NCBI RefSeq assembly: GCF_000189295.2
Contig: NC_016803.1
Coordinates: 600,001-632,000, forward strand
DNA length: 32,000 nt
Origin: Pseudodesulfovibrio mercurii
Lineage (GTDB): Bacteria > Desulfobacterota > Desulfovibrionia > Desulfovibrionales > Desulfovibrionaceae
Direction of reading: 5' to 3'
Under the pieces are notes generated by a model. The model did no database searches, was not told the DNA's origin, and was given only the letters and a program-made list of their open reading frames with translations. The translations under genes were made by a program, and so were the position numbers. Below, piece after piece: positions 1-12,098 of this stretch; within the stretch, counting starts at the first letter, position 1, and every line of letters starts with the position of its first letter.

Positions 1-87
1 TTCGAGGAATTCATTTGCCAGATCGACTTCGACAAGGTGATGGACCTCGGCCATCTCAAGGGCAGCATGTGGATCACCAAGAGGTGA
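1..87 (+). CDS. 3' fragment of a CDS cut by the window edge (hypothetical protein)
   Basis: Frame 1 is open from base 1 to TGA at 85-87 (...FEEFICQIDFDKVMDLGHLKGSMWITKR*). A perfect 6-bp hairpin CCAGCC-AAG-GGCTGG lies at 95-109 just downstream. Too short to assign a family. Confidence 0.3.
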   Translation, partial: FEEFICQIDFDKVMDLGHLKGSMWITKR

Positions 88-153
88 GTCTCGACCAGCC
101 AAGGGCTGGAGTAGTCTTCCTGTGCGCGTCAGCATCGGCCTCTTATGCGTCCA

Positions 154-179
154 GAAAAATCAACAGGCCGAAAATCGTC
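154..179. repeat. Direct repeat copy 1 (GAAAAA..ACAGG-GCCGAAAATCGTC)
   Basis: The exact 13-mer GCCGAAAATCGTC at 167-179 recurs at 281-293. The flanking GAAAAA and ACAGG blocks are also shared. Confidence 0.6.
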
Positions 180-266
180 TGTAAACAGTCGGTAGTTCAA
201 CCGCCGCCAAGAGCCGGATTACCCTCGCTGTGCCTCTGGGGAAGCCTCAGTTCAAGCGCATATCCT

Positions 267-293
267 GAAAAAAACAGGAAGCCGAAAATCGTC
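267..293. repeat. Direct repeat copy 2 (GAAAAAAACAGGAA-GCCGAAAATCGTC)
   Basis: Second copy of the 13-mer (281-293), 114 bp from the first. It lies 44 bp beyond the stop of the minus-strand ORF 337..1251. Confidence 0.6.
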
Positions 294-336
294 CAGCTTC
301 TGTAGGACTTATGCACGAATACAGGACGACAAGACG

Positions 337-1251
337 CTAATCACTGAACTCGCGCAAGGTATCCCTGAACAAGGCCATGTCCTTCGCATCCAAGAAGATG
401 AGGTTGTCATCCATGGCCCTGATCTTGTCCAGATACTGCTGTTTCTTGTTCAGGCTGTCCACGAGCTTGAAGTACTCCGAGGAGCCTGTCTGCCCCTGAA
501 GTCGAGCCTCGATCTCGTGGATGTCCTGCTCCACGGCATCCAGCAACACGCGTTTGATCTCGTGATGGCAGTCATGCTTGACCGTGATCTCTTCCACCAC
601 GTCGAAGGGAACATTTTTCTCGTTCCACACGGCCCACCGCTTTCCGAGCTTTCCCCATGATTCGAAGCAGCTCGTGTGGTGAGTCGTCGGTTCATCGGAC
701 CCCATCTTTCGGAACAGCTTCTCCGGGGAGTCCGACACAACCTGCACTCGAACGGCCCGATCCTCCATCGTCCCGTCGAGATCATTGATCTTGACCCACC
801 AGCCCTTTACCAGATTCTGAAGTTCGTCCTCGGGCATGTCGTTTTCAAGCCTGCCAAGGAGATGAAGAATCGGTACACCTCGTTGCGTTTCCGGCATGAG
901 ACGCCAGAAGAACCAACTTCGGGGGAAGTTCGCCACGAATCGCCTGCGAAGGTTGGTGATCGCACGTTTCCAGTCCTTGGGAGAGGGCGAGGTCATGCAC
1001 GTCAACACGATGTAGTGCGTAGGCGTTTTGTGCAGTTTGATCTCGTTCAACGCCTTCTGGAGTGACAGCCTGCTCTTGTCCGTGAACCTGCTCCTCGACG
1101 GTGCTGCCGGTGACTTGCTGACCTTGGCCTTCTGCTTCTTCGGGCCACTCGCCTTGGGCTTGTTGTGATCAGTGATGCTGACGTACCCCGGCGCGATCCT
1201 GATGGTGTATTCGTCGTCGGGGTCGGGAATCCTGATATCGAGATCGGCCAT
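337..1251 (-). CDS. Hypothetical 304-aa protein; motif order loosely resembles HUH-type rolling-circle replication initiators (mobile-element associated)
   Basis: Long ATG-initiated ORF with protein-like composition. Segments THYIVLTC ... FFWRLMPETQRGVPILHLLG ... GKRWAVWNEKNVPF follow the order of Rep motifs I, II and the post-motif-III block in phage/plasmid Rep families. The match is by eye only. Confidence 0.6.
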   Translation of the reverse strand: MADLDIRIPDPDDEYTIRIAPGYVSITDHNKPKASGPKKQKAKVSKSPAAPSRSRFTDKSRLSLQKALNEIKLHKTPTHYIVLTCMTSPSPKDWKRAITNLRRRFVANFPRSWFFWRLMPETQRGVPILHLLGRLENDMPEDELQNLVKGWWVKINDLDGTMEDRAVRVQVVSDSPEKLFRKMGSDEPTTHHTSCFESWGKLGKRWAVWNEKNVPFDVVEEITVKHDCHHEIKRVLLDAVEQDIHEIEARLQGQTGSSEYFKLVDSLNKKQQYLDKIRAMDDNLIFLDAKDMALFRDTLREFSD

Positions 1252-1548
1252 GGTATCACCTGATTTTCTTCAATGATTTCGAGAAGTGCCGGAAGGAGAT
1301 ACCATCTACGTATACAGTTCGTCAAACGAGAAGAGGCTCACCGGTCAAAGTGTGCCTCCCAGAATTTTTATGCAGGTCGGTACGTGATCCGCTCGTGGGT
1401 CGTTCGAGGAGGGGGAGTCGGCATAGTTGACCCTGATTCGCCCATTCGATACTGCTGATAATGAAGGTGCGGCAGCTCTTCGCCAGACCCTTCCGAGCAG
1501 TGCTGGTAGATACCGAAGGTACTGACTTCGGATAGGAGGTGATGCCTT

Positions 1549-1662
1549 ATGGCCAAGACCAAGTCTGGAAAGAAGAAGGTCCATGTCCCCGAACATGTCC
1601 GCACGGACAAGAACGGGAAGAAGACCAAGGTGCGCGAGCACTACCGCTCCACCCCTGAATAG
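1549..1662 (+). CDS. Small lysine-rich basic protein, 37 aa (below the ORF-track length cutoff)
   Basis: ATG at 1549 lies 8 nt after a GGAGGT Shine-Dalgarno (1535-1540). Translation is MAKTKSGKKKVHVPEHVRTDKNGKKTKVREHYRSTPE*. 29 of the 36 codons after the ATG end in G/C (the ATG itself does too, 30/37), consistent with coding sequence. TAG at 1660-1662. Confidence 0.5.
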   Translation: MAKTKSGKKKVHVPEHVRTDKNGKKTKVREHYRSTPE

Positions 1663-1665
1663 GGG

Positions 1666-3165
1666 CTAACCGGCTGCCGCATCTTCACTTCTTGCCCGTC
1701 CTGCCTTCTTTTTTCCCTTCGCCGTTTCTCGCTCAGCCTTGATTCGCTCCAGCAGGACAGAGGCCGGTTCGTCGTTCGGGTCTTGGGGTACGAGTTCGCC
1801 TCGGAAGGCTTTGGCGAGAATGGATTGATCGAGATTGGCGACTTGGCCTATCAGCCCGATGCTGTTCTCTCTCTGTCCTTTGATGACAGCCAGAGTTTGT
1901 TTTATCTTCCGCGCAAGCTCCACCTGCTCATCTTGCGGAGGTATAGGGACGGCAAGAGCTTTCAGCTTTGAGCCGTTGATGTTCGCCTGTCCAACCTGCT
2001 GGCTCACGTTTTGTGAGACCCACTGGCGACCAAAAGGAGAGTTGATGTACCACACAACAACTTCAGGGACGATCTGCAACACTCTAACTCGAATCAAATA
2101 GGACGCGAATGAGAAGTCCTCATCAGAATCGAACATAGCAGTCTTGCCGACAAGCTCTGCACTGTTCGTCCGGTTGAAAAGGATGTCGCCATAATGCAGG
2201 CACAGCTCAGAGAGGTCTTTGTGACTGCGATCTAGATATTTCAGATTGTCATAAACAAGGTCGCCATCAACGATATTCCCCATCCGCAAGACAGGCATCT
2301 GAGTTTCATCGTCTGAGGTTTTTGCGGACGTTCCATACCTGACATCACATGCCAGTTCTTCAACCTTCGCCCAGCACCATCCTTCCGGCAGTTCCGGCAA
2401 CCCGCTCGCATCAACAGGCTCCGGCTCCTTGTACTTGGCCTTCCACTTGTCGTTCTTGGGATTGATGCCCTTGGCTCGCATCTTGGCGAGTTCCGCTTCT
2501 TCCCACCGGGCGCGGCGTTCGACACGGATGCGTTCGAGGAGCTTTTCGGCTGGCTCCACATCGGGATGCTGCTCGCGCCATTCTGCGGTCAGGTCGCCAC
2601 GGAAGGCGGCGGCAAGCACGGACTGCCGGAACTTCTCCAGCAGCGGCCCCACCGTCTCCAACGCCTCACGAGCACGGCGGCTCTTGGCTTGGAGCGCGTC
2701 GATCTTGTCAGCGATGCGGCGTTGTTCGTTTAGGGGAGGAACAGGAAATTCCGTTGCCTTCAGGAATTTGAAGTGCCGACTATAACCTCGGTCAGGAAGT
2801 TGAACCGTATTCAAAGCATAAGAATAGAGGTTGGTTGAAAGCGGTGAAAGGGGTTTCAAGACCTTCACCCCATCGGCACCTTGGACAAAAGGGAAATCGA
2901 CAAGTTTCACACAGCGCGTGTGATCACCAAACACAATGACGGGTAAATCTCCCTCAAAAGCAAGATCAAATTTGTCTGTTGCCCCACCGATGAGCGCAAC
3001 CCCTTGATCAACAACAGCAAGCGGAGCATTCTCGATGTATTCTTTTTGTTTTACCTTTTTGGTAGAAGATGTCAGATCTTCAAAAATGTCTTGAAAAACT
3101 GCCCAATCCCATTGAACTGGCAACTCCTCGGTGCTCCATTTCCCTTTGTCTGCCTGCTTAGCCAT
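1666..3165 (-). CDS. hsdS: Type I restriction-modification specificity subunit HsdS
   Basis: Two target-recognition halves separated by conserved helical spacers (LNEQRRIADKIDALQ and QDEQVELARKIKQTL) with a long central coiled region. ATG at 3165 is preceded by GGTGGGGA and overlaps the hsdM stop by 8 nt (GATGGCTAA). The track start at 3183 is GTG. Confidence 0.9.
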   Translation of the reverse strand: MAKQADKGKWSTEELPVQWDWAVFQDIFEDLTSSTKKVKQKEYIENAPLAVVDQGVALIGGATDKFDLAFEGDLPVIVFGDHTRCVKLVDFPFVQGADGVKVLKPLSPLSTNLYSYALNTVQLPDRGYSRHFKFLKATEFPVPPLNEQRRIADKIDALQAKSRRAREALETVGPLLEKFRQSVLAAAFRGDLTAEWREQHPDVEPAEKLLERIRVERRARWEEAELAKMRAKGINPKNDKWKAKYKEPEPVDASGLPELPEGWCWAKVEELACDVRYGTSAKTSDDETQMPVLRMGNIVDGDLVYDNLKYLDRSHKDLSELCLHYGDILFNRTNSAELVGKTAMFDSDEDFSFASYLIRVRVLQIVPEVVVWYINSPFGRQWVSQNVSQQVGQANINGSKLKALAVPIPPQDEQVELARKIKQTLAVIKGQRENSIGLIGQVANLDQSILAKAFRGELVPQDPNDEPASVLLERIKAERETAKGKKKAGRARSEDAAAG

Positions 3166-4594
3166 CAAGTTCCCCACCTTCACCCAACATCCCCACCAGT
3201 TCTTCTATCTCCTGCATGGCAATCCTCAGATTCTCCATGATCTGGCCTGCCAACTCTTCCGGTTCCGGCAGGTCTTCGGCATGGTCGGCATTCTCGTCGC
3301 GGAGCCAAGTGATATCGAGGTTGTCGGCCCGCTTGGCGATGTCGTCTCGCGAATAGCAGCGGAAGCGGCCTTCCTCGCCCTGATCCACTCGTTCGGAGCC
3401 GCCGTTGGGATCGTCGCCGTAGGCCTGCTCGAAAGCGGAGAAGTGAGCGCGAGTGAGCGGGGTGCGTTTGCCGAAGCTGGGCATGTTGGTCCGCAGGTCG
3501 TAGACCCAGACCGCCTTGGTGTTGCCCTTGTCCGTCTCGCCGCGCTGGAAGAACAGGACGTTGGTCTTGACGCCCTGTGCGTAGAAGATGCCGGTAGGCA
3601 GACGTAGGATCGTATGCAGGTTGCACTTGTCCATGAGGTCGGTGCGAATCTTCCGACCCGTGTTGTCCTCGAAGAGCACGTTGTCGGGCAGGACCACGGC
3701 GGCACGGCCACCGGGCTTCAAGCCCCTGTAGACGTGCTGAAGGAAGGCAAGCTGGCGGTTGTTGGTCGGGAAGGTGAAATCCTCACGGCGCGTGTGGCCT
3801 CCGCCTGTTGCCGTGCCGAACGGCGGGTTCGTCAGGATGACATCCGCCTTCGGCATGGATGCCCCCTGCGGCCCGAGGGTGTCGCCGAGCGCAATGGGGG
3901 TCTCGATGCCGTGCAGCATCAAGTTCATCAGGCAGAGGCGGTGAACGTCCTGCACCAACTCCATGCCTTGGAAGGCCTGCCGCCGTTGGAAGTTCTGCTT
4001 CGACTCCGGCAGGTTGTACAGGTTGCCGGTGCGCTCCCGAATGTAGGCGTCCGCGTTGATCAGGAAGCCGCCCGTTCCCGCTGCCGGGTCTTGGATGACC
4101 TCCCCGGCCTGCGGTTGCATCAACTCAACCATGACTTCGATAAGCCGACGCGGTGTGAAGTACTGTCCGGCTCCCCGCTTGGACTCGGTGGCGTTCTTTT
4201 CGAGCAACCCCTCGTACAGGTCGCCGAGACCTTCTTCCCGTGCGCTGTACCAGTCCAGTTCATCGAGGGAATCCACAAGTTTCCGCAGGTTCTTGGGCTG
4301 CTGGATGAAGCTGGAGGCGTTAGCATAGATGTCCTGTACCAGCTTCGATCCTTGAGTGCCGAGGTCGATGAGCAGCTTCTTGTAGAACGTGAGTTGCTCC
4401 ACACCGTCCATCTCGACCAGTTTCTTCCAGTGGTAAGCCTCGGGAAGCTGGTCTTCCTTCTCGGTCTCCTCCGCCATCTTCAGAAAGAGGAGGTATGTCA
4501 GCTCGTTTACGTACTGGTGGTAGGTGACACCGTCACCCCAAAGTATATCGCAGAGCTTCCACAGCTTCTGCACGATGTCTTGTGTTGTGGTCAT
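3158..4594 (-). CDS. hsdM: Type I restriction-modification N6-adenine DNA methyltransferase subunit HsdM
   Basis: HsdM N-terminal region, AdoMet motif DPAAGTGGF and catalytic NPPFG motif. Immediately upstream of hsdS with overlapping stop/start. Confidence 0.95.
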   Translation of the reverse strand: MTTTQDIVQKLWKLCDILWGDGVTYHQYVNELTYLLFLKMAEETEKEDQLPEAYHWKKLVEMDGVEQLTFYKKLLIDLGTQGSKLVQDIYANASSFIQQPKNLRKLVDSLDELDWYSAREEGLGDLYEGLLEKNATESKRGAGQYFTPRRLIEVMVELMQPQAGEVIQDPAAGTGGFLINADAYIRERTGNLYNLPESKQNFQRRQAFQGMELVQDVHRLCLMNLMLHGIETPIALGDTLGPQGASMPKADVILTNPPFGTATGGGHTRREDFTFPTNNRQLAFLQHVYRGLKPGGRAAVVLPDNVLFEDNTGRKIRTDLMDKCNLHTILRLPTGIFYAQGVKTNVLFFQRGETDKGNTKAVWVYDLRTNMPSFGKRTPLTRAHFSAFEQAYGDDPNGGSERVDQGEEGRFRCYSRDDIAKRADNLDITWLRDENADHAEDLPEPEELAGQIMENLRIAMQEIEELVGMLGEGGELDG

Positions 4595-4595
4595 G

Positions 4596-4955
4596 TTATA
4601 GCTTCTTGCCTTCTATGCTAACACGGTGTTTGTTGGCGAAATGCTCCCTAACTGCCGATGCATGCAAAAGCATATCGCAGAAAGGGCATCTGATTTTTAT
4701 TGTCTGATGGGTGCGCTCGATGTGGACATAAAGGAGGTGGATAGGAACAACTTCGATACAAAATGGACACTTGGCTTTATTCTCCGGCGGGACATTCCAA
4801 GGAGCTTTCGACCAGAAATCACGAGGATGATCCCAATTGGTTAACGGTCTGCGATCACTACACGGAGGCTCTTTGCTTATGTCGTCGTACACCTTGTGAC
4901 GTGGATCTTGATCTGGTTCGGGCTTTGGCGTGGGGTCATGCTTGAGCTTCGTCAT
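4596..4955 (-). CDS. Small protein (119 aa) with two tandem C2H2-type zinc-finger motifs, embedded in the type I RM operon
   Basis: ATG at 4955 follows AAGGA and lies 5 nt after the hsdR stop (TAA 4961-4963). Its own TAA (4596-4598) is 1 nt from the hsdM ATG (4594). CPFCIEVVPIHLLYVHIERTH and CPFCDMLLHASAVREHFANKH share identical C-x2-C-x11-H-x4-H spacing. The track start at 4979 is GTG. Confidence 0.7.
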   Translation of the reverse strand: MTKLKHDPTPKPEPDQDPRHKVYDDISKEPPCSDRRPLTNWDHPRDFWSKAPWNVPPENKAKCPFCIEVVPIHLLYVHIERTHQTIKIRCPFCDMLLHASAVREHFANKHRVSIEGKKL

Positions 4956-4960
4956 AGTCC

Positions 4961-7900
4961 TTACCCCGCGTCCTGCCACAAGGCGTCATTAAGTTCGCCG
5001 AGCACTTCTTCCAACTGACCGTCGAACACCCTGTCCAACCGTCGAAAACCGCCATCCGCTTTGAACTGGCCGCTGTTCAATGCGTCCCTGTCCACGATGG
5101 TCTCTTCCAACATCTGTGCGCCGATACGTTCTAACCACTTGCGCTGCGGGTCCGTCCAAGGCCTGCTGGCAAGGATGCGTTCCATGGCCCGTTCGACCCT
5201 CTTTTGATAAGGAACAAGCGGAGAACCCAAGGCGAGTTGGCGGATGAAGCCGATGATGGAGGCGGCGATATCCTGATTGGTGGCATCCCGCCAAGCGGTC
5301 CGAAGTTTGACCTCGGAATAGCCTTGCTCGTCAAGCAGGAGTTTCAATTCCCGGAGCTGCTGCCGAGTGAGGTCACGGGGCCGTTGCAACACGACCTTGA
5401 TGGCCGCCACGTCGTTCTTGTGTGTGTCGATGTACTGCCTGAATGCGTCGAGGTAGTCCTTCGGCTTCACACTGTCGCCGTAGCCCCGCTCTTCCCGGAG
5501 GACTTCGTCGTCATGGTGGGAGATGAGTTGCTTCGGCCTCTTCCTCATTCTCAGATTGTCCAAGAACGCGCCGAGCCCTTGGAGGCTGGTCAACATCCGG
5601 CTTGTGGCCTGCAAATCCGTCTCGGCCAATTTCTGAGCGAATTGTTCGGTATCGTCTCCCGTGATGGTCGTGAACTTCTCCAGGGCATCGCCCTCAAGAA
5701 GACGTTTCTTGCGCTGGAACTTGGCTCGGAACTGATCGATGACCGTTTTGCGCACATCATCCGCCTCCGCCTCTTCCAGCTCCTTGATGAGCTGGTCGAA
5801 CGTGACGGAGGGATTCTGTACCACCGGCTTCATGGTCGAGTAATCCTGAATGGCCGAGTACATATCCACGGCATCGAAGATGCGGAAACACTCCTTGCCG
5901 ATCTCATCGCACAGCCGGGTCGCCCGGCCCATCATCTGCTCGTAGAGGATGCGGCTGCGGACTCGGCGCAGGAACACGAGGTTGGTGATCTTCGGCACGT
6001 CGATGCCCGTGGTCAGCAGGTCCACAGTGACGACCACATTCGGCATCTTCTCGTTCTTGAAGTGCCGGATCAACCCCAGCGGCTTGTCCGCCGTCCCTGT
6101 GATCTTGACGATCGCGTCGTCATCAACGGAACCATATTGATCGGCGAACGCCTGCTTGAGCAGGTCCACCACCATGTCGGCATGGCTGTCCGTAGCGCAG
6201 AAGATGAGTGTCTTGCCGTCGAATGTCGGATCAAGATGCTTGGCCAGACACTCGCACACGACCTTGTTGAACGGCTCGGTGATGACACGCTTATTGAACT
6301 CCTCGATCTCCACCGACACCTCATCGTCGAGATTCCATGTGTCGATCTCCCCGCTCTTCATGTCGAGCACTTCGATTTCTTCCCCGGCCTTCCATGTGAT
6401 GCCGTCCTCGGCCAAACGCGTGACGATGCGGATGGGCGGCTCATGGTCCACAAGGTAGCCGTCGATGACCGCCTGACGGTATGAGTAAGTATAGACCGGT
6501 TCGCCGAAGAGTTCGGTGGTGTGCAGTGCTGGCGTTGCCGTGAGACCGATCCTGACCGCGTCGAAATGGTCGAGTACCCGGCTGTACTTGGAGATATAGT
6601 CCCGCTCGCTTCGGAAGGTCAGTTCCGCTTCCGACATGTCCTTGTCGAGATTGTACCCCCGGTGGCACTCGTCCACGATGACGCAGTCATACTGGTCCAC
6701 AGGCAACGGCTGTTCGCCCTCGCTAGAGAACAGGAGCCGCTTGATCATGCCTTGGATGGTAGCGATCTGAAGCCGGGTGTCCTTGTCAGGCTTGATGTCG
6801 CCCAGCTCCTTCACGTCGTAGATGTCATTGAATGTCTGGTGGCTCTCCAACCGGAAATCCTTGAAGGCGTCCGCAGTCTGTTCCCCGAGGGACGTTCGGT
6901 CCACGAGGAAGAGCACCCGGCGGAATCGCTTGGCCTTGCAGAGCCGGTAGACCAGCCCGATGCAGGTTCGCGTCTTGCCCGTCCCCGTCGCCATGGCTGT
7001 GAGGATGTTGCGCTCACCTTTGGCGATGGCGTCTTCAATGGCTCGGATGGCTTCATGCTGGTAATAGCGCAGATCGAGGTAGTCCGAGGAGTCCTTGGCA
7101 AGGGTCTCGTCAGCCTCGGGGATGTCCTGCCCCAACAGCTCAATCAGCCCCTGCGGTGTCGGCCACGCGGTCAGAGGGCGGGCAAGGTTGGTCGGGACAC
7201 GGGCGTCACGGAACCAGATGCCGCTCTTGGTCCGAACCTGCTTGAGGAACGGTCTGCCATTGGAGGAAAGCAGGAAGGGGACGATATGGTCATCCCACGG
7301 CTCGCCTTCAGGAAGTCGCTCCTCCCCCTTGATCACATAGCCCTTGCTGTACCGCTGGGCCTGCTTGATCGCGGCGGAGACATCGACCCGCTTGCGCTTG
7401 GCCTCGACCGTCGCGACTGGAGTTATGCCCACAAAGAGGACGTAGTCGGCTGGCCCCGTTGCTGTCGGCCATTCGGCGATGGCGAGATTCCTCCCTTTCT
7501 GCGGGCGCACACCGGCCTTGAAAGTGATGCGCTGTGTGTCCGCTTCCCATCCGGCATCACGAAGCTGGTCGTCGATGAGTTTGCGGGTGTCGGCCTCGTC
7601 GAGGTCCACCGCATCCTCGGCCACCGTCTTGATGGTCGCCTTGGTGAGGTTGATCTCGTCTTGGCTCTTTTCGGCTGTCTGCCTTTGCAGCTCTCCGAGT
7701 CGTTCGGCAAACCGTGCGTTCTCCTGCGTCTGTTGCTGCTCGGTCTCTCGAAGAAGAGCCTCGGTGGTTGAAAGCTGTTGGTAGGCCTCTTCCGCCCTCT
7801 GCTGTGCCTCCTGTTGCGCTTGCTCCGTCTCAGCGAGCTGCCTGCGGAGTCGTCCCAGTTCCTCGGCAAGGGCGTCATCTGCTTGTTGTGGTTTGGCGGG

Positions 7901-8329
7901 AGGCAGAAACGGCCCCGGATCGAATGCCTTGTCCTCACCGAAGGAACGATGGAACCAGATGGCGAGGATGCGGGCAAACCGAAGCGCGTCGAGTGCGTGT
8001 TGCGGCTCTCCTTCGAGTTCGTGGGCTGCGACGTTCCCGGCTTTGCGAAGTATGTGGAGGACTTGGTTGATCTTCGGGGTCAGGAGGCCTTCATCATCGA
8101 GGCGGCGAATGATGCGGAGGGCGGTGTCTCCCTCGTAGATGGGGACGGCGGATCGGACGGCCACCTGCTTCGTGAGCAGTTCACCAAAGAGACGCACCTT
8201 GAACAGGGCGGCATTCGGGTCCGCGAATACCAGCCGTTCGGCCTGCGCTGCACACTTGAGCAGCAGCTCGTCATGCTCTGCGAGGAACCAGAAGTTCGGT
8301 GATTGGATGGTGTCGCTTGTCCGGTCCAT
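4961..8329 (-). CDS. hsdR: Type I restriction enzyme R subunit HsdR (DUF4145-like N-terminal domain, coiled coil, PD-(D/E)xK nuclease, SF2 helicase)
   Basis: Walker A MATGTGKT, DEAH-box VIVDECHRG, nuclease-like ADYVLF...VEAKR, and a C-terminal region resembling EcoEI-type HsdR tails. The ATG at 8329 has GGAGA 6 nt upstream. The track start at 8434 adds 35 non-conserved residues. Confidence 0.95.
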   Translation of the reverse strand: MDRTSDTIQSPNFWFLAEHDELLLKCAAQAERLVFADPNAALFKVRLFGELLTKQVAVRSAVPIYEGDTALRIIRRLDDEGLLTPKINQVLHILRKAGNVAAHELEGEPQHALDALRFARILAIWFHRSFGEDKAFDPGPFLPPAKPQQADDALAEELGRLRRQLAETEQAQQEAQQRAEEAYQQLSTTEALLRETEQQQTQENARFAERLGELQRQTAEKSQDEINLTKATIKTVAEDAVDLDEADTRKLIDDQLRDAGWEADTQRITFKAGVRPQKGRNLAIAEWPTATGPADYVLFVGITPVATVEAKRKRVDVSAAIKQAQRYSKGYVIKGEERLPEGEPWDDHIVPFLLSSNGRPFLKQVRTKSGIWFRDARVPTNLARPLTAWPTPQGLIELLGQDIPEADETLAKDSSDYLDLRYYQHEAIRAIEDAIAKGERNILTAMATGTGKTRTCIGLVYRLCKAKRFRRVLFLVDRTSLGEQTADAFKDFRLESHQTFNDIYDVKELGDIKPDKDTRLQIATIQGMIKRLLFSSEGEQPLPVDQYDCVIVDECHRGYNLDKDMSEAELTFRSERDYISKYSRVLDHFDAVRIGLTATPALHTTELFGEPVYTYSYRQAVIDGYLVDHEPPIRIVTRLAEDGITWKAGEEIEVLDMKSGEIDTWNLDDEVSVEIEEFNKRVITEPFNKVVCECLAKHLDPTFDGKTLIFCATDSHADMVVDLLKQAFADQYGSVDDDAIVKITGTADKPLGLIRHFKNEKMPNVVVTVDLLTTGIDVPKITNLVFLRRVRSRILYEQMMGRATRLCDEIGKECFRIFDAVDMYSAIQDYSTMKPVVQNPSVTFDQLIKELEEAEADDVRKTVIDQFRAKFQRKKRLLEGDALEKFTTITGDDTEQFAQKLAETDLQATSRMLTSLQGLGAFLDNLRMRKRPKQLISHHDDEVLREERGYGDSVKPKDYLDAFRQYIDTHKNDVAAIKVVLQRPRDLTRQQLRELKLLLDEQGYSEVKLRTAWRDATNQDIAASIIGFIRQLALGSPLVPYQKRVERAMERILASRPWTDPQRKWLERIGAQMLEETIVDRDALNSGQFKADGGFRRLDRVFDGQLEEVLGELNDALWQDAG

Positions 8330-8414
8330 TGGCATTCTCCAGTCCAACATGGCGAGAAACATCGCGAACCTACAACAGAACGCCCGATAAAGGAAGTTCT
8401 TGAGCTTGACAAAC

Positions 8415-8434
8415 TCGGACCATTTTCGGACCAT
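8415..8434. promoter_or_regulatory. Tandem 9-bp direct repeat TCGGACCAT-TT-TCGGACCAT beside a TTGACA hexamer, upstream of hsdR
   Basis: Two perfect 9-mers with an 11-bp period (8415-8423 and 8426-8434). TTGACA lies on the + strand at 8406-8411; its near-complement TTGTCA reads toward hsdR. Confidence 0.3.
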
Positions 8435-8587
8435 CTACCCAGATCAGCAACCGCTGTTAGCGGAACCGACCACACGGCAAGACCTTGCCGTTTATGAAGG
8501 AAGGTGAGGGAGATGCGAGGCCGATCCGGTCTCGGCGACGAGAGAGTGTCGCATTCTCCCACCCTCTCCGCCATATTTCTCAAGACG

Positions 8588-8622
8588 AATCCCGGCAGCA
8601 CCCTGCCGGGATTTGTTTTTTA
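8588..8622 (+). terminator. Strong intrinsic terminator with no upstream + strand gene
   Basis: Perfect 11-bp stem AATCCCGGCAG / CTGCCGGGATT with loop CACC, followed by TGTTTTTTAT. The U-tract is present only on the + strand. Confidence 0.7.
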
Positions 8623-8751
8623 TCCCACGCCACATCAACCGTTCCTATTCTGTAGACAACACGGTCTTTCATCCTATTTACCCCTCTCCTCCCCCCCAAT
8701 CACCCAACCCCAGGATTGCTTCCCGCTCAAGAACATTATAGAGGGGTGGCC

Positions 8752-9042
8752 ATGAGTTACCCGCATGAAGCAAGAGCTGTTGAGGATGTGGTGGCGCAGG
8801 CCGCGCGGCATATCGGGCACCATGGCGGCCTGGCCGGGGATTGGTATGTCGGCATCGAGGAAAAGGGGTCGGACCGGGACAGCCGGAACGACCGCTGCCT
8901 GATGAATTACCTGCTGGCCTCGGAAGACGACGCCAAGACGGCCATGTCGCGGCTGCTCGACCGGGGGCTGCAGGCCGACGACGAGTACGGGGCCGAGCCG
9001 ACCATTCTGTTCATCTACACCAGGAAAAAGAAGGCGGCCTGA
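8752..9042 (+). CDS. Hypothetical small protein (96 aa)
   Basis: ATG at 8752 is preceded by GAGGGG. Translation starts MSYPHEARAVEDV...DWYVGIEEKG and ends ...ILFIYTRKKKAA. GC-rich codon usage like the core genes. No family recognised. Confidence 0.6.
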   Translation: MSYPHEARAVEDVVAQAARHIGHHGGLAGDWYVGIEEKGSDRDSRNDRCLMNYLLASEDDAKTAMSRLLDRGLQADDEYGAEPTILFIYTRKKKAA

Positions 9043-9209
9043 GGCGGCCCGACGCCCTTTTGGTCCGCCGCCAGGCAGATTGCGACGGCACTGCGCCGCC
9101 CGTGTGATCCGCCGCCAGGCACGGCAAAGACATCGATGCTCCGCCTAGGTGCACCGGCACCCGGCGCGTCCTCGCCGCCGTCCACCCCTTCGCCCCCTTT
9201 CATCGACCA

Positions 9210-9242
9210 TAAAAAAAGGACCGACGGTCGCCCGCCGGTCCC
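9210..9242 (-). terminator. Intrinsic terminator of the TSCPD gene
   Basis: On the minus strand, GGACCGGCGG-GCGA-CCGTCGGTCC (10-bp stem, one mismatch) is followed by TTTTTTT (A-run 9211-9217 on +). It lies 44 bp past the stop at 9286. Confidence 0.7.
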
Positions 9243-9285
9243 TGTGCGCTCCGCCGCTGCCGGTTCGAACCGGCGGCGCGGAGGG

Positions 9286-9606
9286 CTAGCTGGACGTGTG
9301 CTTGTTCTTGTATTCCTGGAGGGCGTGGCAGAACTGGTCCACGCAGGAGGTGGACTTGGAGCCGCAGGTGATGCCGCTGAAACGGTCCAGGACGAAATCG
9401 ACGTTCATGCCCTCGATCATGGCGGCGATGGCCTTGAGGTTGCCCTCGCAACCGCCGGAGAAGTTGACGTAATCGATGCTGCCGTTGTCCACGACGAAGT
9501 CGATTTCCTTGGTGCAGACGCTCCCTTCCGGGATGAAGTGTTCGACCCGTGCGCGGGGGCCGGGCACAGTGCGCATGGGAGCGGCCTGACGATGTGCGTT
9601 ATCCAT
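9286..9606 (-). CDS. TSCPD-domain protein, TIGR03905-like
   Basis: GSVCTKEIDF...FSGGCEGNLKAIAAMIEGM...GITCGSKSTSCVDQ matches the conserved Cys pattern and TSC(P/V)DQ motif of the TIGR03905 family. The start is uncertain: ATG at 9606 or 9576; the track start at 9615 is TTG. Confidence 0.8.
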   Translation of the reverse strand: MDNAHRQAAPMRTVPGPRARVEHFIPEGSVCTKEIDFVVDNGSIDYVNFSGGCEGNLKAIAAMIEGMNVDFVLDRFSGITCGSKSTSCVDQFCHALQEYKNKHTSS

Positions 9607-10866
9607 TGTATTCAATCCATTTCCTTTTACGGTTCAAGCCGGACGAACCGGCTATAATACACGCCCCATGCCGCGACGGCGGCCCCTGCGGGCCAATGCG
9701 GCCGCCCTCCTCCGGCATGTCCCGAATTGGGGACACGGGAGGACGCGGCGCGTCGTCCGTGGGCACGGAGACGATTCCTCAAGGCAATTGCGGGAACGTT
9801 GCACATCGACGCAAACGACCATGCAAAATGGTTCCGACAACCAGGAGCCCGCGTTTGGGCAGGCCCCGCTCGTTCCCGCAGCGGAGGGAGAGGTTATCAA
9901 CCTCTGCTGAAAACATCTCGGACACGGCCGCCCGGCGCGAACAGCCCGGCGAACACCCTATGATACAACCAGAAGATCATGGGCACTGCCGAACCGAACG
10001 CTTGTGCTTTATTTCTCAAGCCCTACCTGAGACGAAGCGCAAACCGGACAAACGCATGTCATTGAACTCTCTCCACCAAGTGGCGAATGACGGGCTTTTC
10101 CCGCTCGCCGGGGAGTTGAACTACAGAAAGTCGATACCCCTGTCAAACCTCAATTGTGAAACATGGAACATTTTTTCCTACCGATCTTGCAGGTAATTGC
10201 CCAGACCAGGGGCAATCCCCCGACATGTTTAAAAAAAAGCATTATTAATCAAATTGTTATAGTTTATGTCGCGGACTTTTCCCGCCTTCGTCATTTTCCC
10301 TGGATGAACATCTTCCTCGACACCCCTCGTTTTATCATTTCCCGACAAGGCCGGGCGGAGCTCCGGGAAGGACGACCGGCCAACCATGCCCGAAAAGGCT
10401 TCACACTGCTTGTATCGCCCTTTCGTTTACGAGGGGGAACGATGCGCACATGTGCATCGGTGCCGCGACGGCAGGCACGATGGCCTCCACAGGAGGAGAT
10501 GAAAGGCGCAGGGAACCGGACCGGGCGGAGGGCCGGCGCGGCGCATCCGCCGAATCGACCGCCCCCGCCTCGACCGGCCCACCGGCCGCGAAATTCCCAT
10601 GGCCGGACGCTTTGCATTTGCCGCGCGATGGGCTACAAGGGGGCTGATCGCACGAAGGCTGCTCGCTGTTCCGGGATCGATTCCCCAGGTGCGTCCATAG
10701 GACGCGCGTGCGGAATGGGAGCCGCCATGTTCCGTCATCACCCCCTTCGACTCCACGCCCCCCATTCCGTCGCGGCCCGCCGCGCCACGGCCGGTTCACC
10801 GTCCGCGCGCCCCCTTTGACCCGGGACGGCTTGCCCCACTCAACCCAATCATTCGGAGAAAAAACC

Positions 10867-11121
10867 ATGGACCCGTATATCGCAGCAACCAACGGCGTGG
10901 TCATGATCATCCTGATCATCCTCCTGGTCATCCTGTCCTTCTGCCTGATCTTCGCCCCCCTGTTCATCTGGAAATGGACCAAGGCTACCAGGAACGAGGT
11001 CACGCGGCTCAACGCCAACCTCATCGTCCTGGTGACCATGCTCAAGCGGTGGGAAAATCGCTACCTTCTGGTGGACGGCGAACAGAGCCCGGACCACAAG
11101 GAGGAACGGGTGTTCAAGTAG
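10867..11121 (+). CDS. Small single-pass membrane protein (84 aa), hypothetical
   Basis: ATG at 10867 lies 8 nt after GGAGA. The N-terminal hydrophobic helix [25 protein letters not shown] is followed by a charged tail. The upstream part of track ORF 10708..11121 is Pro/Arg-rich and unlikely to be coding. Confidence 0.55.
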
Positions 11122-11167
11122 CCAGTGCCGGGACGCCCCGGCAACGGCCCGCCCCAACCCGCCCGTC

Positions 11168-11193
11168 CGGACCGCTTTCCGCGGCCGTTTTTC
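11168..11193 (+). terminator. Possible intrinsic terminator after the small membrane protein gene
   Basis: CGGACCGC-TTTCC-GCGGCCG forms a stem of about 7 bp with one bulge, followed by TTTTTCTCC. Confidence 0.35.
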
Positions 11194-11288
11194 TCCTTGT
11201 CCCCGGCCTCCTTCGATCGTACATTCCCTATCGTCCACAGCCCATTCCGTCCGACAGGAACAGTCTTCAGCCACAGGAGATTCGTCGC

Positions 11289-12098
11289 GTGCACTGGTTC
11301 ATGGAGCAAAACGCCGTCTTTCAGGCCTTCCTGGCCACCCTGTTCACCTGGGGCGTGACCGCCCTGGGCGCGGCCCTGGTCTTCACGGCCAGGGACATCT
11401 CCAAGCGGACCCTGGACATCATGCTCGGGTTCGCCGGAGGCGTGATGATGGCCGCCAGCTACTGGTCGCTCCTGGCCCCGGCCCTGGAGATGAGCGGGGA
11501 CATGGGAACCTGGGCCTTTGTCCCGGCCGCCGTGGGATTCGTGCTCGGCGCGTCCTTCCTCCGGCTGGTGGATATGGTCCTGCCCCACCTGCACCTGAAC
11601 GCGCCCCTGTCCGAGGCGGAGGGCGTCAAGACCAACTGGCGGCGCAGCACCCTGCTGGTCACGGCCATCACCCTGCACAACATCCCCGAGGGGCTGGCCG
11701 TGGGCGTGGCCTTCGGGGCCGTGGCCGCCGGGCTCGACTCCGCCAGCCTGGCCGGGGCCGTGTCCCTGGCGCTGGGCATCGGCATCCAGAATTTCCCCGA
11801 GGGCACGGCCGTGTCCGTACCCCTGCGCCGCGAGGGCATGTCGCGCACGAAGGCGTTCCTGTACGGCCAGGCCTCGGGCATGGTCGAGCCCGTGGCCGCC
11901 GTGCTCGGCGCGGCCGCCGTGCTGGTGGCCCGGCCCCTGCTGCCCTACGCCCTGGCCTTTGCCGCCGGGGCCATGATCTTCGTGGTCGTGGAGGAGGTCA
12001 TCCCGGAATCCCAGTCCTCGGGCAACGGCGACCTGGCCACCATGGGCGTGGTCTTCGGCTTCACCCTGATGATGATCCTGGACGTGGCCCTGGGTTAG
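11289..12098 (+). CDS. zupT: ZIP-family divalent metal transporter (ZupT-like)
   Basis: Multi-pass membrane protein with ZIP signatures [10 protein letters not shown] and QNFPEG. GTG at 11289 lies 8 nt after AGGAGA (11275-11280). An in-frame ATG at 11301 is the alternative start. Confidence 0.9.

Follow-up and report, generated by a model that had tools for sequence, protein, structure and literature searches.

In this study we analyzed a 32,000-nucleotide stretch of the Pseudodesulfovibrio mercurii genome (contig NC_016803.1, positions 600,001 to 632,000; hereafter the window) and identify in it a gene for a small protein with tandem C2H2 zinc fingers, which fills the gap between hsdR and hsdM of a type IB-like restriction-modification (RM) operon. 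Comparison of the operon with its relatives indicates that the slot between the two genes is hypervariable and that the finger gene, a rare allele of it, is an optional cassette embedded there, not a core or obligatory Hsd subunit. Its product is tentatively interpreted as a putative protein-binding adaptor or modulator of the neighboring helicase-nuclease, or of a phage factor targeting that enzyme, a reading to which we assign a probability of about 0.4.

The elements of the cassette are given below, with secondary structure as predicted by AlphaFold2 (AF2) and model confidence as the predicted local distance difference test score (pLDDT):

4596-4955, minus strand: cassette open reading frame (ORF) of 119 amino acids, MTKLKHDPTPKPEPDQDPRHKVYDDISKEPPCSDRRPLTNWDHPRDFWSKAPWNVPPENKAKCPFCIEVVPIHLLYVHIERTHQTIKIRCPFCDMLLHASAVREHFANKHRVSIEGKKL; fills the hsdR-hsdM gap and codes for predicted Di19/TRAF-like tandem C2H2 fingers (translation, Pfam, two homologues, AF2 model)
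4956-4966, minus strand: upstream junction and left homology breakpoint; hsdR TAA overlapping AAGGA, then the cassette ATG
4592-4598, minus strand: downstream junction and right homology breakpoint; TAA-C-ATG (cassette stop, one base, hsdM start)
4878-4955, minus strand: N-terminal conserved linear motif, residues 1-26, MTKLKHDPTPKPEPDQ...YDDI, in a predicted disordered region (three-protein alignment, low pLDDT)
4794-4814, minus strand: W-x-K-A-P-W-N motif directly ahead of finger 1 (the PW motif); P52 and W53 do not vary among the five aligned module copies
4707-4769, minus strand: finger 1, CPFCIEVVPIHLLYVHIERTH, residues 63-83; predicted ligands C63, C66, H78 and H83; strands 60-62 and 69-71, helix 72-82
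4626-4688, minus strand: finger 2, CPFCDMLLHASAVREHFANKH, residues 90-110; predicted ligands C90, C93, H105 and H110; strands 87-89 and 96-98, helix 99-110

A foreign cassette between hsdR and hsdM

The finger gene is nested between hsdR and hsdM on the same (minus) strand, an arrangement that recurs in a second locus, L001. The hsdR stop codon (TAA, 4961-4963) is followed by a 5 nt spacer and the cassette ATG at 4955, while the cassette TAA (4596-4598) ends one base before the hsdM ATG at 4594. The original prediction, made from the letters of the window alone, had pointed to a 119-residue ORF in this gap with precisely these two junctions, and both sequence and translation bear it out. The low G+C content that it reported is likewise confirmed, with 0.48 for the finger gene against 0.59 for hsdR and 0.60 for hsdM. 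The contrast is stronger for G+C at third codon positions (GC3), which is 0.51 in the finger gene versus 0.76 in hsdR and 0.80 in hsdM. This GC3 contrast, together with the breakpoints of homology at both junctions described below, upholds the proposal that the insert was acquired separately. The finger gene, foreign in its codon usage, is thus a low-GC cassette of a single gene that was acquired by horizontal transfer.

An imperfect 20-nt direct repeat (16 of 20 positions) was considered as a footprint of insertion. One copy (4586-4605) covers both the stop codon of the cassette and the start of hsdM; the second (4931-4950) falls in cassette codons 2-8. It has no counterpart in L001 by eye and such short pairs often arise by chance, which is also the probable origin of this one. 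Scans of the window for Rfam families and tRNAs returned no matches.

Sequence and predicted structure of the finger protein

Both fingers have the pattern C-x2-C-x11-H-x4-H with identical spacing and are joined by the 6-residue linker QTIKIR, just as the original prediction had it; they map to residues 63-83 and 90-110. Composition-preserving shuffling of the protein produced this exact motif once in 0.07% of cases and twice in none of 500,000. The Pfam zf-Di19 model (PF05605) recovers the protein with 31.3 bits (gathering cut-off 27.5; E = 2.5e-7). In an AF2 model built from a three-sequence alignment, residues 50-119 form two beta-beta-alpha units with pLDDT 82-92, in which the hairpins contribute the cysteines and the helices the histidines. 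Foldseek searches of the PDB and of viral models with this structure returned zinc fingers without exception, namely ZFAT, TRAF6, CTCF, Kaiso, KCMF1, RNF125, CEP104 and TRAF-type fingers. Thus, the check for a beta-beta-alpha fold that had been proposed at the outset gives a concordant answer from AF2 and Foldseek, though the latter with E-values of at least 0.03. A profile of the family compared with PDB sequences recovered a similar set, comprising TZAP, ZNF524, ZNF217, Di19, LYAR, the UBZ fingers of RAD18 and WRNIP1, and RNF125. By these criteria of sequence and predicted fold, the protein is a genuine tandem C2H2 finger protein of the C2H2/zf-Di19 type.

The N-terminal half had been described as probably disordered, and the model supports this, with pLDDT below 50 at residues 1-4 and 17-42; however, residues 1-26 carry a linear motif conserved throughout the three known members of the family. 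The predicted architecture is therefore a disordered N-terminal tail with a conserved short motif, followed by the PW motif and then by two beta-beta-alpha fingers of the Di19/TRAF/RNF125 type. The fingers are the sole recognizable domains, since searches with Pfam, NCBIfam, PADLOC and PHROGs detected no catalytic or membrane domain. With NCBIfam and PADLOC there was no match at all, and PHROGs gave one insignificant match (E = 0.59).

A nearly orphan family encoded beside helicase-nuclease genes

Exhaustive phmmer searches against 1.84 billion cluster representatives recovered 30 matches at E <= 1e-3. Among the 11 of these that we inspected, two proteins, P0001 (233 residues; E = 2e-24) and P0002 (260 residues; E = 1e-8), align beyond the finger region, whereas the other nine resemble eukaryote-type finger arrays. 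A family-profile search of 5.8 billion proteins returned P0001 and P0002 alone, each a singleton, and a word-indexed search of the same number of proteins with the single sequence returned no match. Likewise, tblastn searches of 72,556 plasmids and 50,697 phages were negative at E <= 1, and locus scans of viral and Joint Genome Institute (JGI) metagenome contigs with the family pattern found no relative. A profile hidden Markov model run against six-frame translations of all 71 loci fetched in this work matched only in L001 and L002, the respective loci of P0001 and P0002. The family as recovered by these searches thus consists of three genes among about 15 billion proteins, and is extremely rare and nearly orphan.

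Both relatives contain the whole module, i.e. a short helix, the PW motif and the two fingers, in duplicate. The five module copies of the three proteins share 24-39% identity, with P52, W53, P57, C63, C66, Y76, H78, H83, C90, C93 and H105 invariant throughout; in the N-terminal motif P10, Q16, Y23 and I26 are invariant in all three proteins. These invariant residues are strong evidence for a translated and constrained protein with predicted zinc binding. A five-sequence alignment was too divergent to be used. The AF2 model of P0001 shows the beta-beta-alpha pattern four times, but at low confidence (pLDDT 51), and is uninformative on the packing between modules.

The two relatives lie in different genomic settings. 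P0001 is encoded between an hsdR whose product is 83% identical to that of the window over 601 residues and an hsdM with identical first 16 residues. L001 and the window thus carry orthologous type IB operons with a finger gene in the same slot, the finger proteins being about 39% identical and the L001 copy duplicated. P0002, in contrast, is the product of the first gene of a different operon, preceded by a divergent intergenic region and located 39 nt upstream of a gene for a 1187-residue protein, which is followed by one for a 258-residue coiled-coil-like protein. The 1187-residue protein combines a DUF559/DUF2726-like nuclease region with a RecQ-family helicase core and matches the PADLOC models DpdF and PsyrT. 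Homologues of this helicase (46-70% identical) retain the downstream partner but not the finger gene; in one case a PLD-family gene occupies the upstream position.

The finger gene therefore adjoins a defense gene that codes for both a nuclease and a superfamily 2 (SF2) helicase in three of three cases, HsdR twice and the DUF559/RecQ-like protein once. The census of gene-neighborhoods that had been suggested hence gives a twofold answer: all members reside beside SF2 helicase-nuclease defense genes, but the gene is absent from homologous operons of both types. Judged by these comparisons, it is optional in each.

The operon of L002 (1924-7082) and its relatives L066-L070 combine the nuclease (DUF559/DUF2726-like)-RecQ-like helicase of about 1200 residues with a partner of 258-318 residues (46-70% identity), the two genes being tightly joined, i.e. 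overlapping or within about 20 nt. The gene upstream of the pair varies: it codes for the doubled finger protein or for a PLDc_2 protein, or is missing altogether. The pair is a possible undescribed defense operon.

The hsdR-hsdM junction as a one-gene slot

From the species-representative genomes of GTDB we retrieved 60 type IB loci and measured the hsdR-hsdM junction in the 46 that contain both gene ends:

Gap of at most 30 nt (hsdR and hsdM abut): 11 of 46 loci
Gap of 71-262 nt: 4 of 46 loci
Gap of 0.35-2.7 kb: 31 of 46 loci

The cargo of the slot is diverse, comprising 1) SoFic-like Fic proteins (Fic_N, Fic and SoFic-like_C; about 356-394 residues) in 15 gammaproteobacterial loci; 2) an AAA_21 ABC-type ATPase with a partner in 3 Myxococcota loci; 3) an Mrr-type endonuclease; 4) VapBC-like (PIN) and further small-ORF pairs resembling toxin-antitoxin modules; and 5) several small cysteine-rich or uncharacterized ORFs. 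The Fic proteins occupy the slots of L026, L028, L030, L033-L035, L038, L039, L041, L043, L049, L052, L053, L055 and L060 (Shewanella, Aeromonas, Colwellia, Serratia and others). Two-gene modules are seen in L014, L017 and L018; the PIN (VapC) toxin is confirmed by Pfam in L017 and by homology to L017 in L014, and the other ORFs of these modules, such as a ParDE-like pair in L014, were assigned by reading their sequences alone.

The slots of the operons closest to that of the window are occupied as follows (percentages are identities to the proteins of the window):

L063, slot 6818-7360: 180-residue ORF with a hydrophobic, probably transmembrane N-terminus and no Pfam match; hsdR 91%, hsdM 95%, syntenic flanks
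L001: doubled finger protein of 233 residues; hsdR 83%
L003, slot 7803-8318: unrelated 171-residue ORF with a hydrophobic N-terminus and no Pfam or PADLOC match; hsdR 80%, hsdM 90%
L064, slot 6479-7594: 371-residue ORF with no Pfam match; hsdR 76%

No finger homologue was detected in any of the 60 GTDB loci, nor in L063, L003 or L064, and the slot ORFs of the latter three are candidate embedded defense effectors. All four slot genes abut hsdR and hsdM as tightly as does the finger gene of the window, and all those of the close relatives are lower in G+C than their own operons. DNA homology of the window to L001, L003 and L063 ends with the stop codon of hsdR and restarts at the hsdM ATG; in L001 alone it extends into the initial ~56 nt of the finger gene. 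Moreover, in a tree of HsdR the window pairs with L063 and not with L001. By this comparison, the content of the slot turns over faster than the enzyme genes, probably by homologous recombination in the conserved flanks.

Since related operons carry unrelated slot genes or none, the finger protein is not an obligatory subunit of Hsd. The initial designation of the gene as a candidate new type I RM component was accordingly overstated, with unrelated genes found in the same slot of L063, L003 and L064; what stands is a real, foreign tandem-finger gene located by defense helicase-nucleases.

Comparison with known systems

The nearest likeness is to the eukaryotic zf-Di19/RNF125/TRAF-type fingers (PF05605), with which the protein shares the CP-x-C ... 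H-x4-H ligands, the tandem beta-beta-alpha units and a Pfam score above the cut-off, along with weak PDB matches to Di19 (9qt9), RNF125 (8gbq) and TRAF6 (3hcs). Unlike these, it is bacterial, comprises just 119 residues and lacks a RING, a ubiquitin-interacting motif (UIM) or the Di19 C-terminal domain; it has instead its own PW motif and N-terminal tail, and is encoded in a restriction operon. The Ros/MucR proteins likewise contain a bacterial Cys2His2-type zinc domain, but theirs is a single, larger globular finger domain, whereas the protein under study has two classical-sized fingers; it gave no match to the ROS_MUCR models of Pfam or NCBIfam even at E <= 1. From the classical DNA-reading arrays (Zif268/CTCF) it differs in having neither a TGEKP-like linker nor polar or basic contact positions. 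With type II C proteins and RptR it shares a small size, a probably dimeric state and a location in or beside RM operons. C proteins and RptR use helix-turn-helix domains, a family absent from the Pfam matches of the finger protein even at E <= 1, and no operator was identified.

The presence of additional genes inside type I RM operons is well established, e.g. PrrC (PMC3874165), TgvAB of Vibrio cholerae VPI-2 (PMC11411939) and DarTG2 with its regulator RptR in enteropathogenic Escherichia coli (EPEC; PMC12255303). PrrC, a non-Hsd gene inside the type IC operon EcoprrI, is thought to associate with the type I enzyme and to act upon phage counter-defense (PMC3874165); unlike the finger protein, which has no effector domain, it contains NTPase and nuclease domains, and it also belongs with a different type I family and lies elsewhere in the operon. 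In a 'guilt-by-embedding' survey, Payne et al. (2024; bioRxiv 10.1101/2024.01.29.577857) counted, across BREX, DISARM and type I systems, 3,231 families of embedded proteins. The finger gene resembles this class in being nested on the same strand among hsd genes and in its variable presence among related operons; it stands apart as a single, small gene with a predicted binding-only product. PADLOC-DB 2.0, including its embedded-candidate (PDC) models, assigned the window protein, P0001 and P0002 to 0 families, and full-text literature searches found no paper that connects bacterial restriction or anti-phage defense with fingers of the C2H2 or zf-Di19 type. By these differences and by its distribution among operons, the finger protein falls outside PrrC-like guards, Ros/MucR proteins, classical DNA-reading arrays and core Hsd subunits.

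Possible functions of the finger protein

We favor the adaptor or modulator reading because all three family members abut a large immune protein that combines a nuclease with an SF2 helicase. Junctions as tight as these (5 nt and 1 nt) suggest co-expression of the finger gene with the hsd genes through translational coupling. Because it has no catalytic or membrane domain, the protein would act through binding, and because both relatives carry the module twice, the functional unit would probably consist of two modules, such that the window protein is probably a homodimer. The adaptor may then dock on the nuclease/SF2-helicase enzyme, or on a phage factor aimed at this enzyme, and might tune or guard restriction. 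Two features were counted in favor of protein binding rather than DNA binding: the isoelectric point (pI) of the module is not conserved, ranging from 4.4 to 9.2, and the canonical base-contact positions of the helices, read from the sequence, are P/H/L/V and H/S/A/E, with a linker that is not of the TGEKP type. Many of the nearest fold relatives, namely TRAF6, RNF125, KCMF1 and the UBZ fingers, are protein-interaction fingers.

Several observations weigh against this reading. The Foldseek E-values are weak, as expected of tiny domains. The finger region of the window protein is basic (pI 9.1) and compatible with a DNA-binding role, and DNA binding is known for Di19 and many other C2H2 proteins. 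In HsdR, no residue sets the finger-bearing operons apart (0 splits, versus 13 for the nearest-neighbor pair, among five sequences), and operons that are 91-95% identical lack the finger gene, so any effect on Hsd is dispensable. Finally, P0001 and P0002 both derive from one sample (SRR17165182), and the statistics of association are weak at n = 3 members.

The main rival is that the finger protein is a transcriptional controller, which as a DNA-bound dimer would control the genes that follow its own (hsdM-hsdS in the window and the helicase operon in L002), in analogy to the type II C proteins or to RptR and BrxR beside defense operons. The gene is suitably placed for such a role, directly upstream of hsdM in the window and first in the L002 operon with the divergent intergenic region ahead of it. 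The basic finger region of the window protein and the presence of the DNA-binding fingers TZAP, ZNF524, CTCF and Di19 among the profile and fold matches point the same way, and small regulators tied to type I RM are known (RptR, PMC12255303). However, both modules of P0002 are acidic (pI 4.4 and 5.6), as is module 1 of P0001 (pI 5.5), the recognition positions of the helices are hydrophobic or small, and no sigma-70-like promoter or operator was detected near the finger gene; a search upstream of the L002 finger gene and in positions 1-10000 of the window returned nothing convincing. Near-identical operons also lack the finger gene. The original prediction had envisaged a controller acting on a repeat at 8406-8434, but the direct repeat ATGGTCCGA-AA-ATGGTCCGA upstream of hsdR is fully conserved in the finger-less L063, which weakens both this proposal and the candidacy of the finger protein as binder of that repeat. 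On balance, we consider a controller rather unlikely.

A different possibility is an autonomous embedded factor, a putative anti-phage or anti-anti-restriction protein which shares the operon for co-expression and makes no contact with Hsd, e.g. by sequestering a phage protein or nucleic acid. This would agree with the literature on embedded genes: TgvAB works without HsdR (PMC11411939), and the other alleles of the slot are mutually unrelated (Fic, ABC ATPase, Mrr, VapBC and proteins with hydrophobic N-termini). The finger protein, though, has no effector, enzymatic or membrane domain and matches no PADLOC model, the embedded-candidate ones included, and its gene recurs beside one class of enzyme, nuclease plus SF2 helicase, in two unrelated types of operon, making such a factor unlikely in our estimate. 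A further proposal is that of a neutral or selfish hitch-hiker, a decaying or functionless ORF caught in a recombination-prone slot. The extreme scarcity of the family, with three genes in about 15 billion proteins, the foreign codon usage of the gene and the divergence of the finger proteins at orthologous positions (39% identity, against 83% for hsdR) are all compatible with this. On the other hand, the reading frame is intact with tight junctions in both hsd operons, the whole module is kept in duplicate in two lineages, and the zinc ligands and the PW motif are conserved across five diverged copies. Because of this conservation of the ligands we hold a hitch-hiker to be very unlikely.

The adaptor or modulator reading might be extended to a more speculative one, which we regard as improbable: the PW and tandem-C2H2 module could be a portable, non-catalytic partner for immune enzymes of the nuclease/SF2-helicase class, HsdR and the RecQ-like protein alike. 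It might, for example, be a labile inhibitor or sensor through which the enzyme is released or redirected upon infection. TRAF/RNF125-type fingers regulate helicase-based innate immunity in animals, and the bacterial module would be their counterpart, with the type IB RM junction serving as a dedicated slot for interchangeable guard modules.

Flanking genes and other features of the window

The hsd genes that flank the cassette are:

4961-8434, minus strand: hsdR, type IB-like; DUF4145, HSDR_N, ResIII, Helicase_C and EcoEI_R_C domains (NCBIfam NF008521, 1561 bits; cut-off 729)
3158-4594, minus strand: hsdM; HsdM_N and N6_Mtase domains
1666-3183, minus strand: hsdS; two Methylase_S target-recognition domains; likely start at ATG 3165, overlapping the end of hsdM

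The first 35 codons of the hsdR ORF (8329-8434) probably remain untranslated. The NCBIfam model begins at residue 45 and L064 diverges before 'IQSPNFWFLAEHD', because of which we place the true start probably at the ATG at 8329 (MDRTSDT...). The ATGGTCCGA repeat is situated at 8415-8434 (minus strand), ahead of hsdR and directly upstream of a -35-like TTGTCA (8407-8412). It is fully conserved in L063 and not in L003, whereas a TTGTC...TATCGGGC stretch is kept in all three. The repeat may be a regulator site at the hsdR promoter, though not one tied to the finger gene.

A 304-residue ORF (337-1251, minus strand), which begins about 0.4 kb beyond hsdS, matches nothing in Pfam or PADLOC. The DNA around it is conserved in L063 (87% identity), and the ORF may belong to the same island. 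A gene for a ZIP-family zinc transporter (10974-12098, plus strand) is found ~2.5 kb upstream of hsdR and ~6 kb from the finger gene. Its neighbors are of the housekeeping type (DUF1499 and a pyridine-nucleotide oxidoreductase), and coincidence is the most likely explanation.

Significance

In bacteria, tandem C2H2 fingers of the eukaryote type are highly unusual, and none is known to have been connected with restriction-modification. What is new here is the tandem-finger protein as an allele of the slot; the embedding of genes in type I RM operons as such was already known, and with just three genes the rarity of the family limits its general importance. If it is true that the finger protein modulates or guards the helicase-nuclease, it would represent a new class, non-enzymatic in nature, of accessory genes housed within immune operons. 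A broader and maybe more useful result is that the type IB hsdR-hsdM junction in this clade is a precise one-gene slot, and hence a compact place to mine for new defense or regulatory genes.

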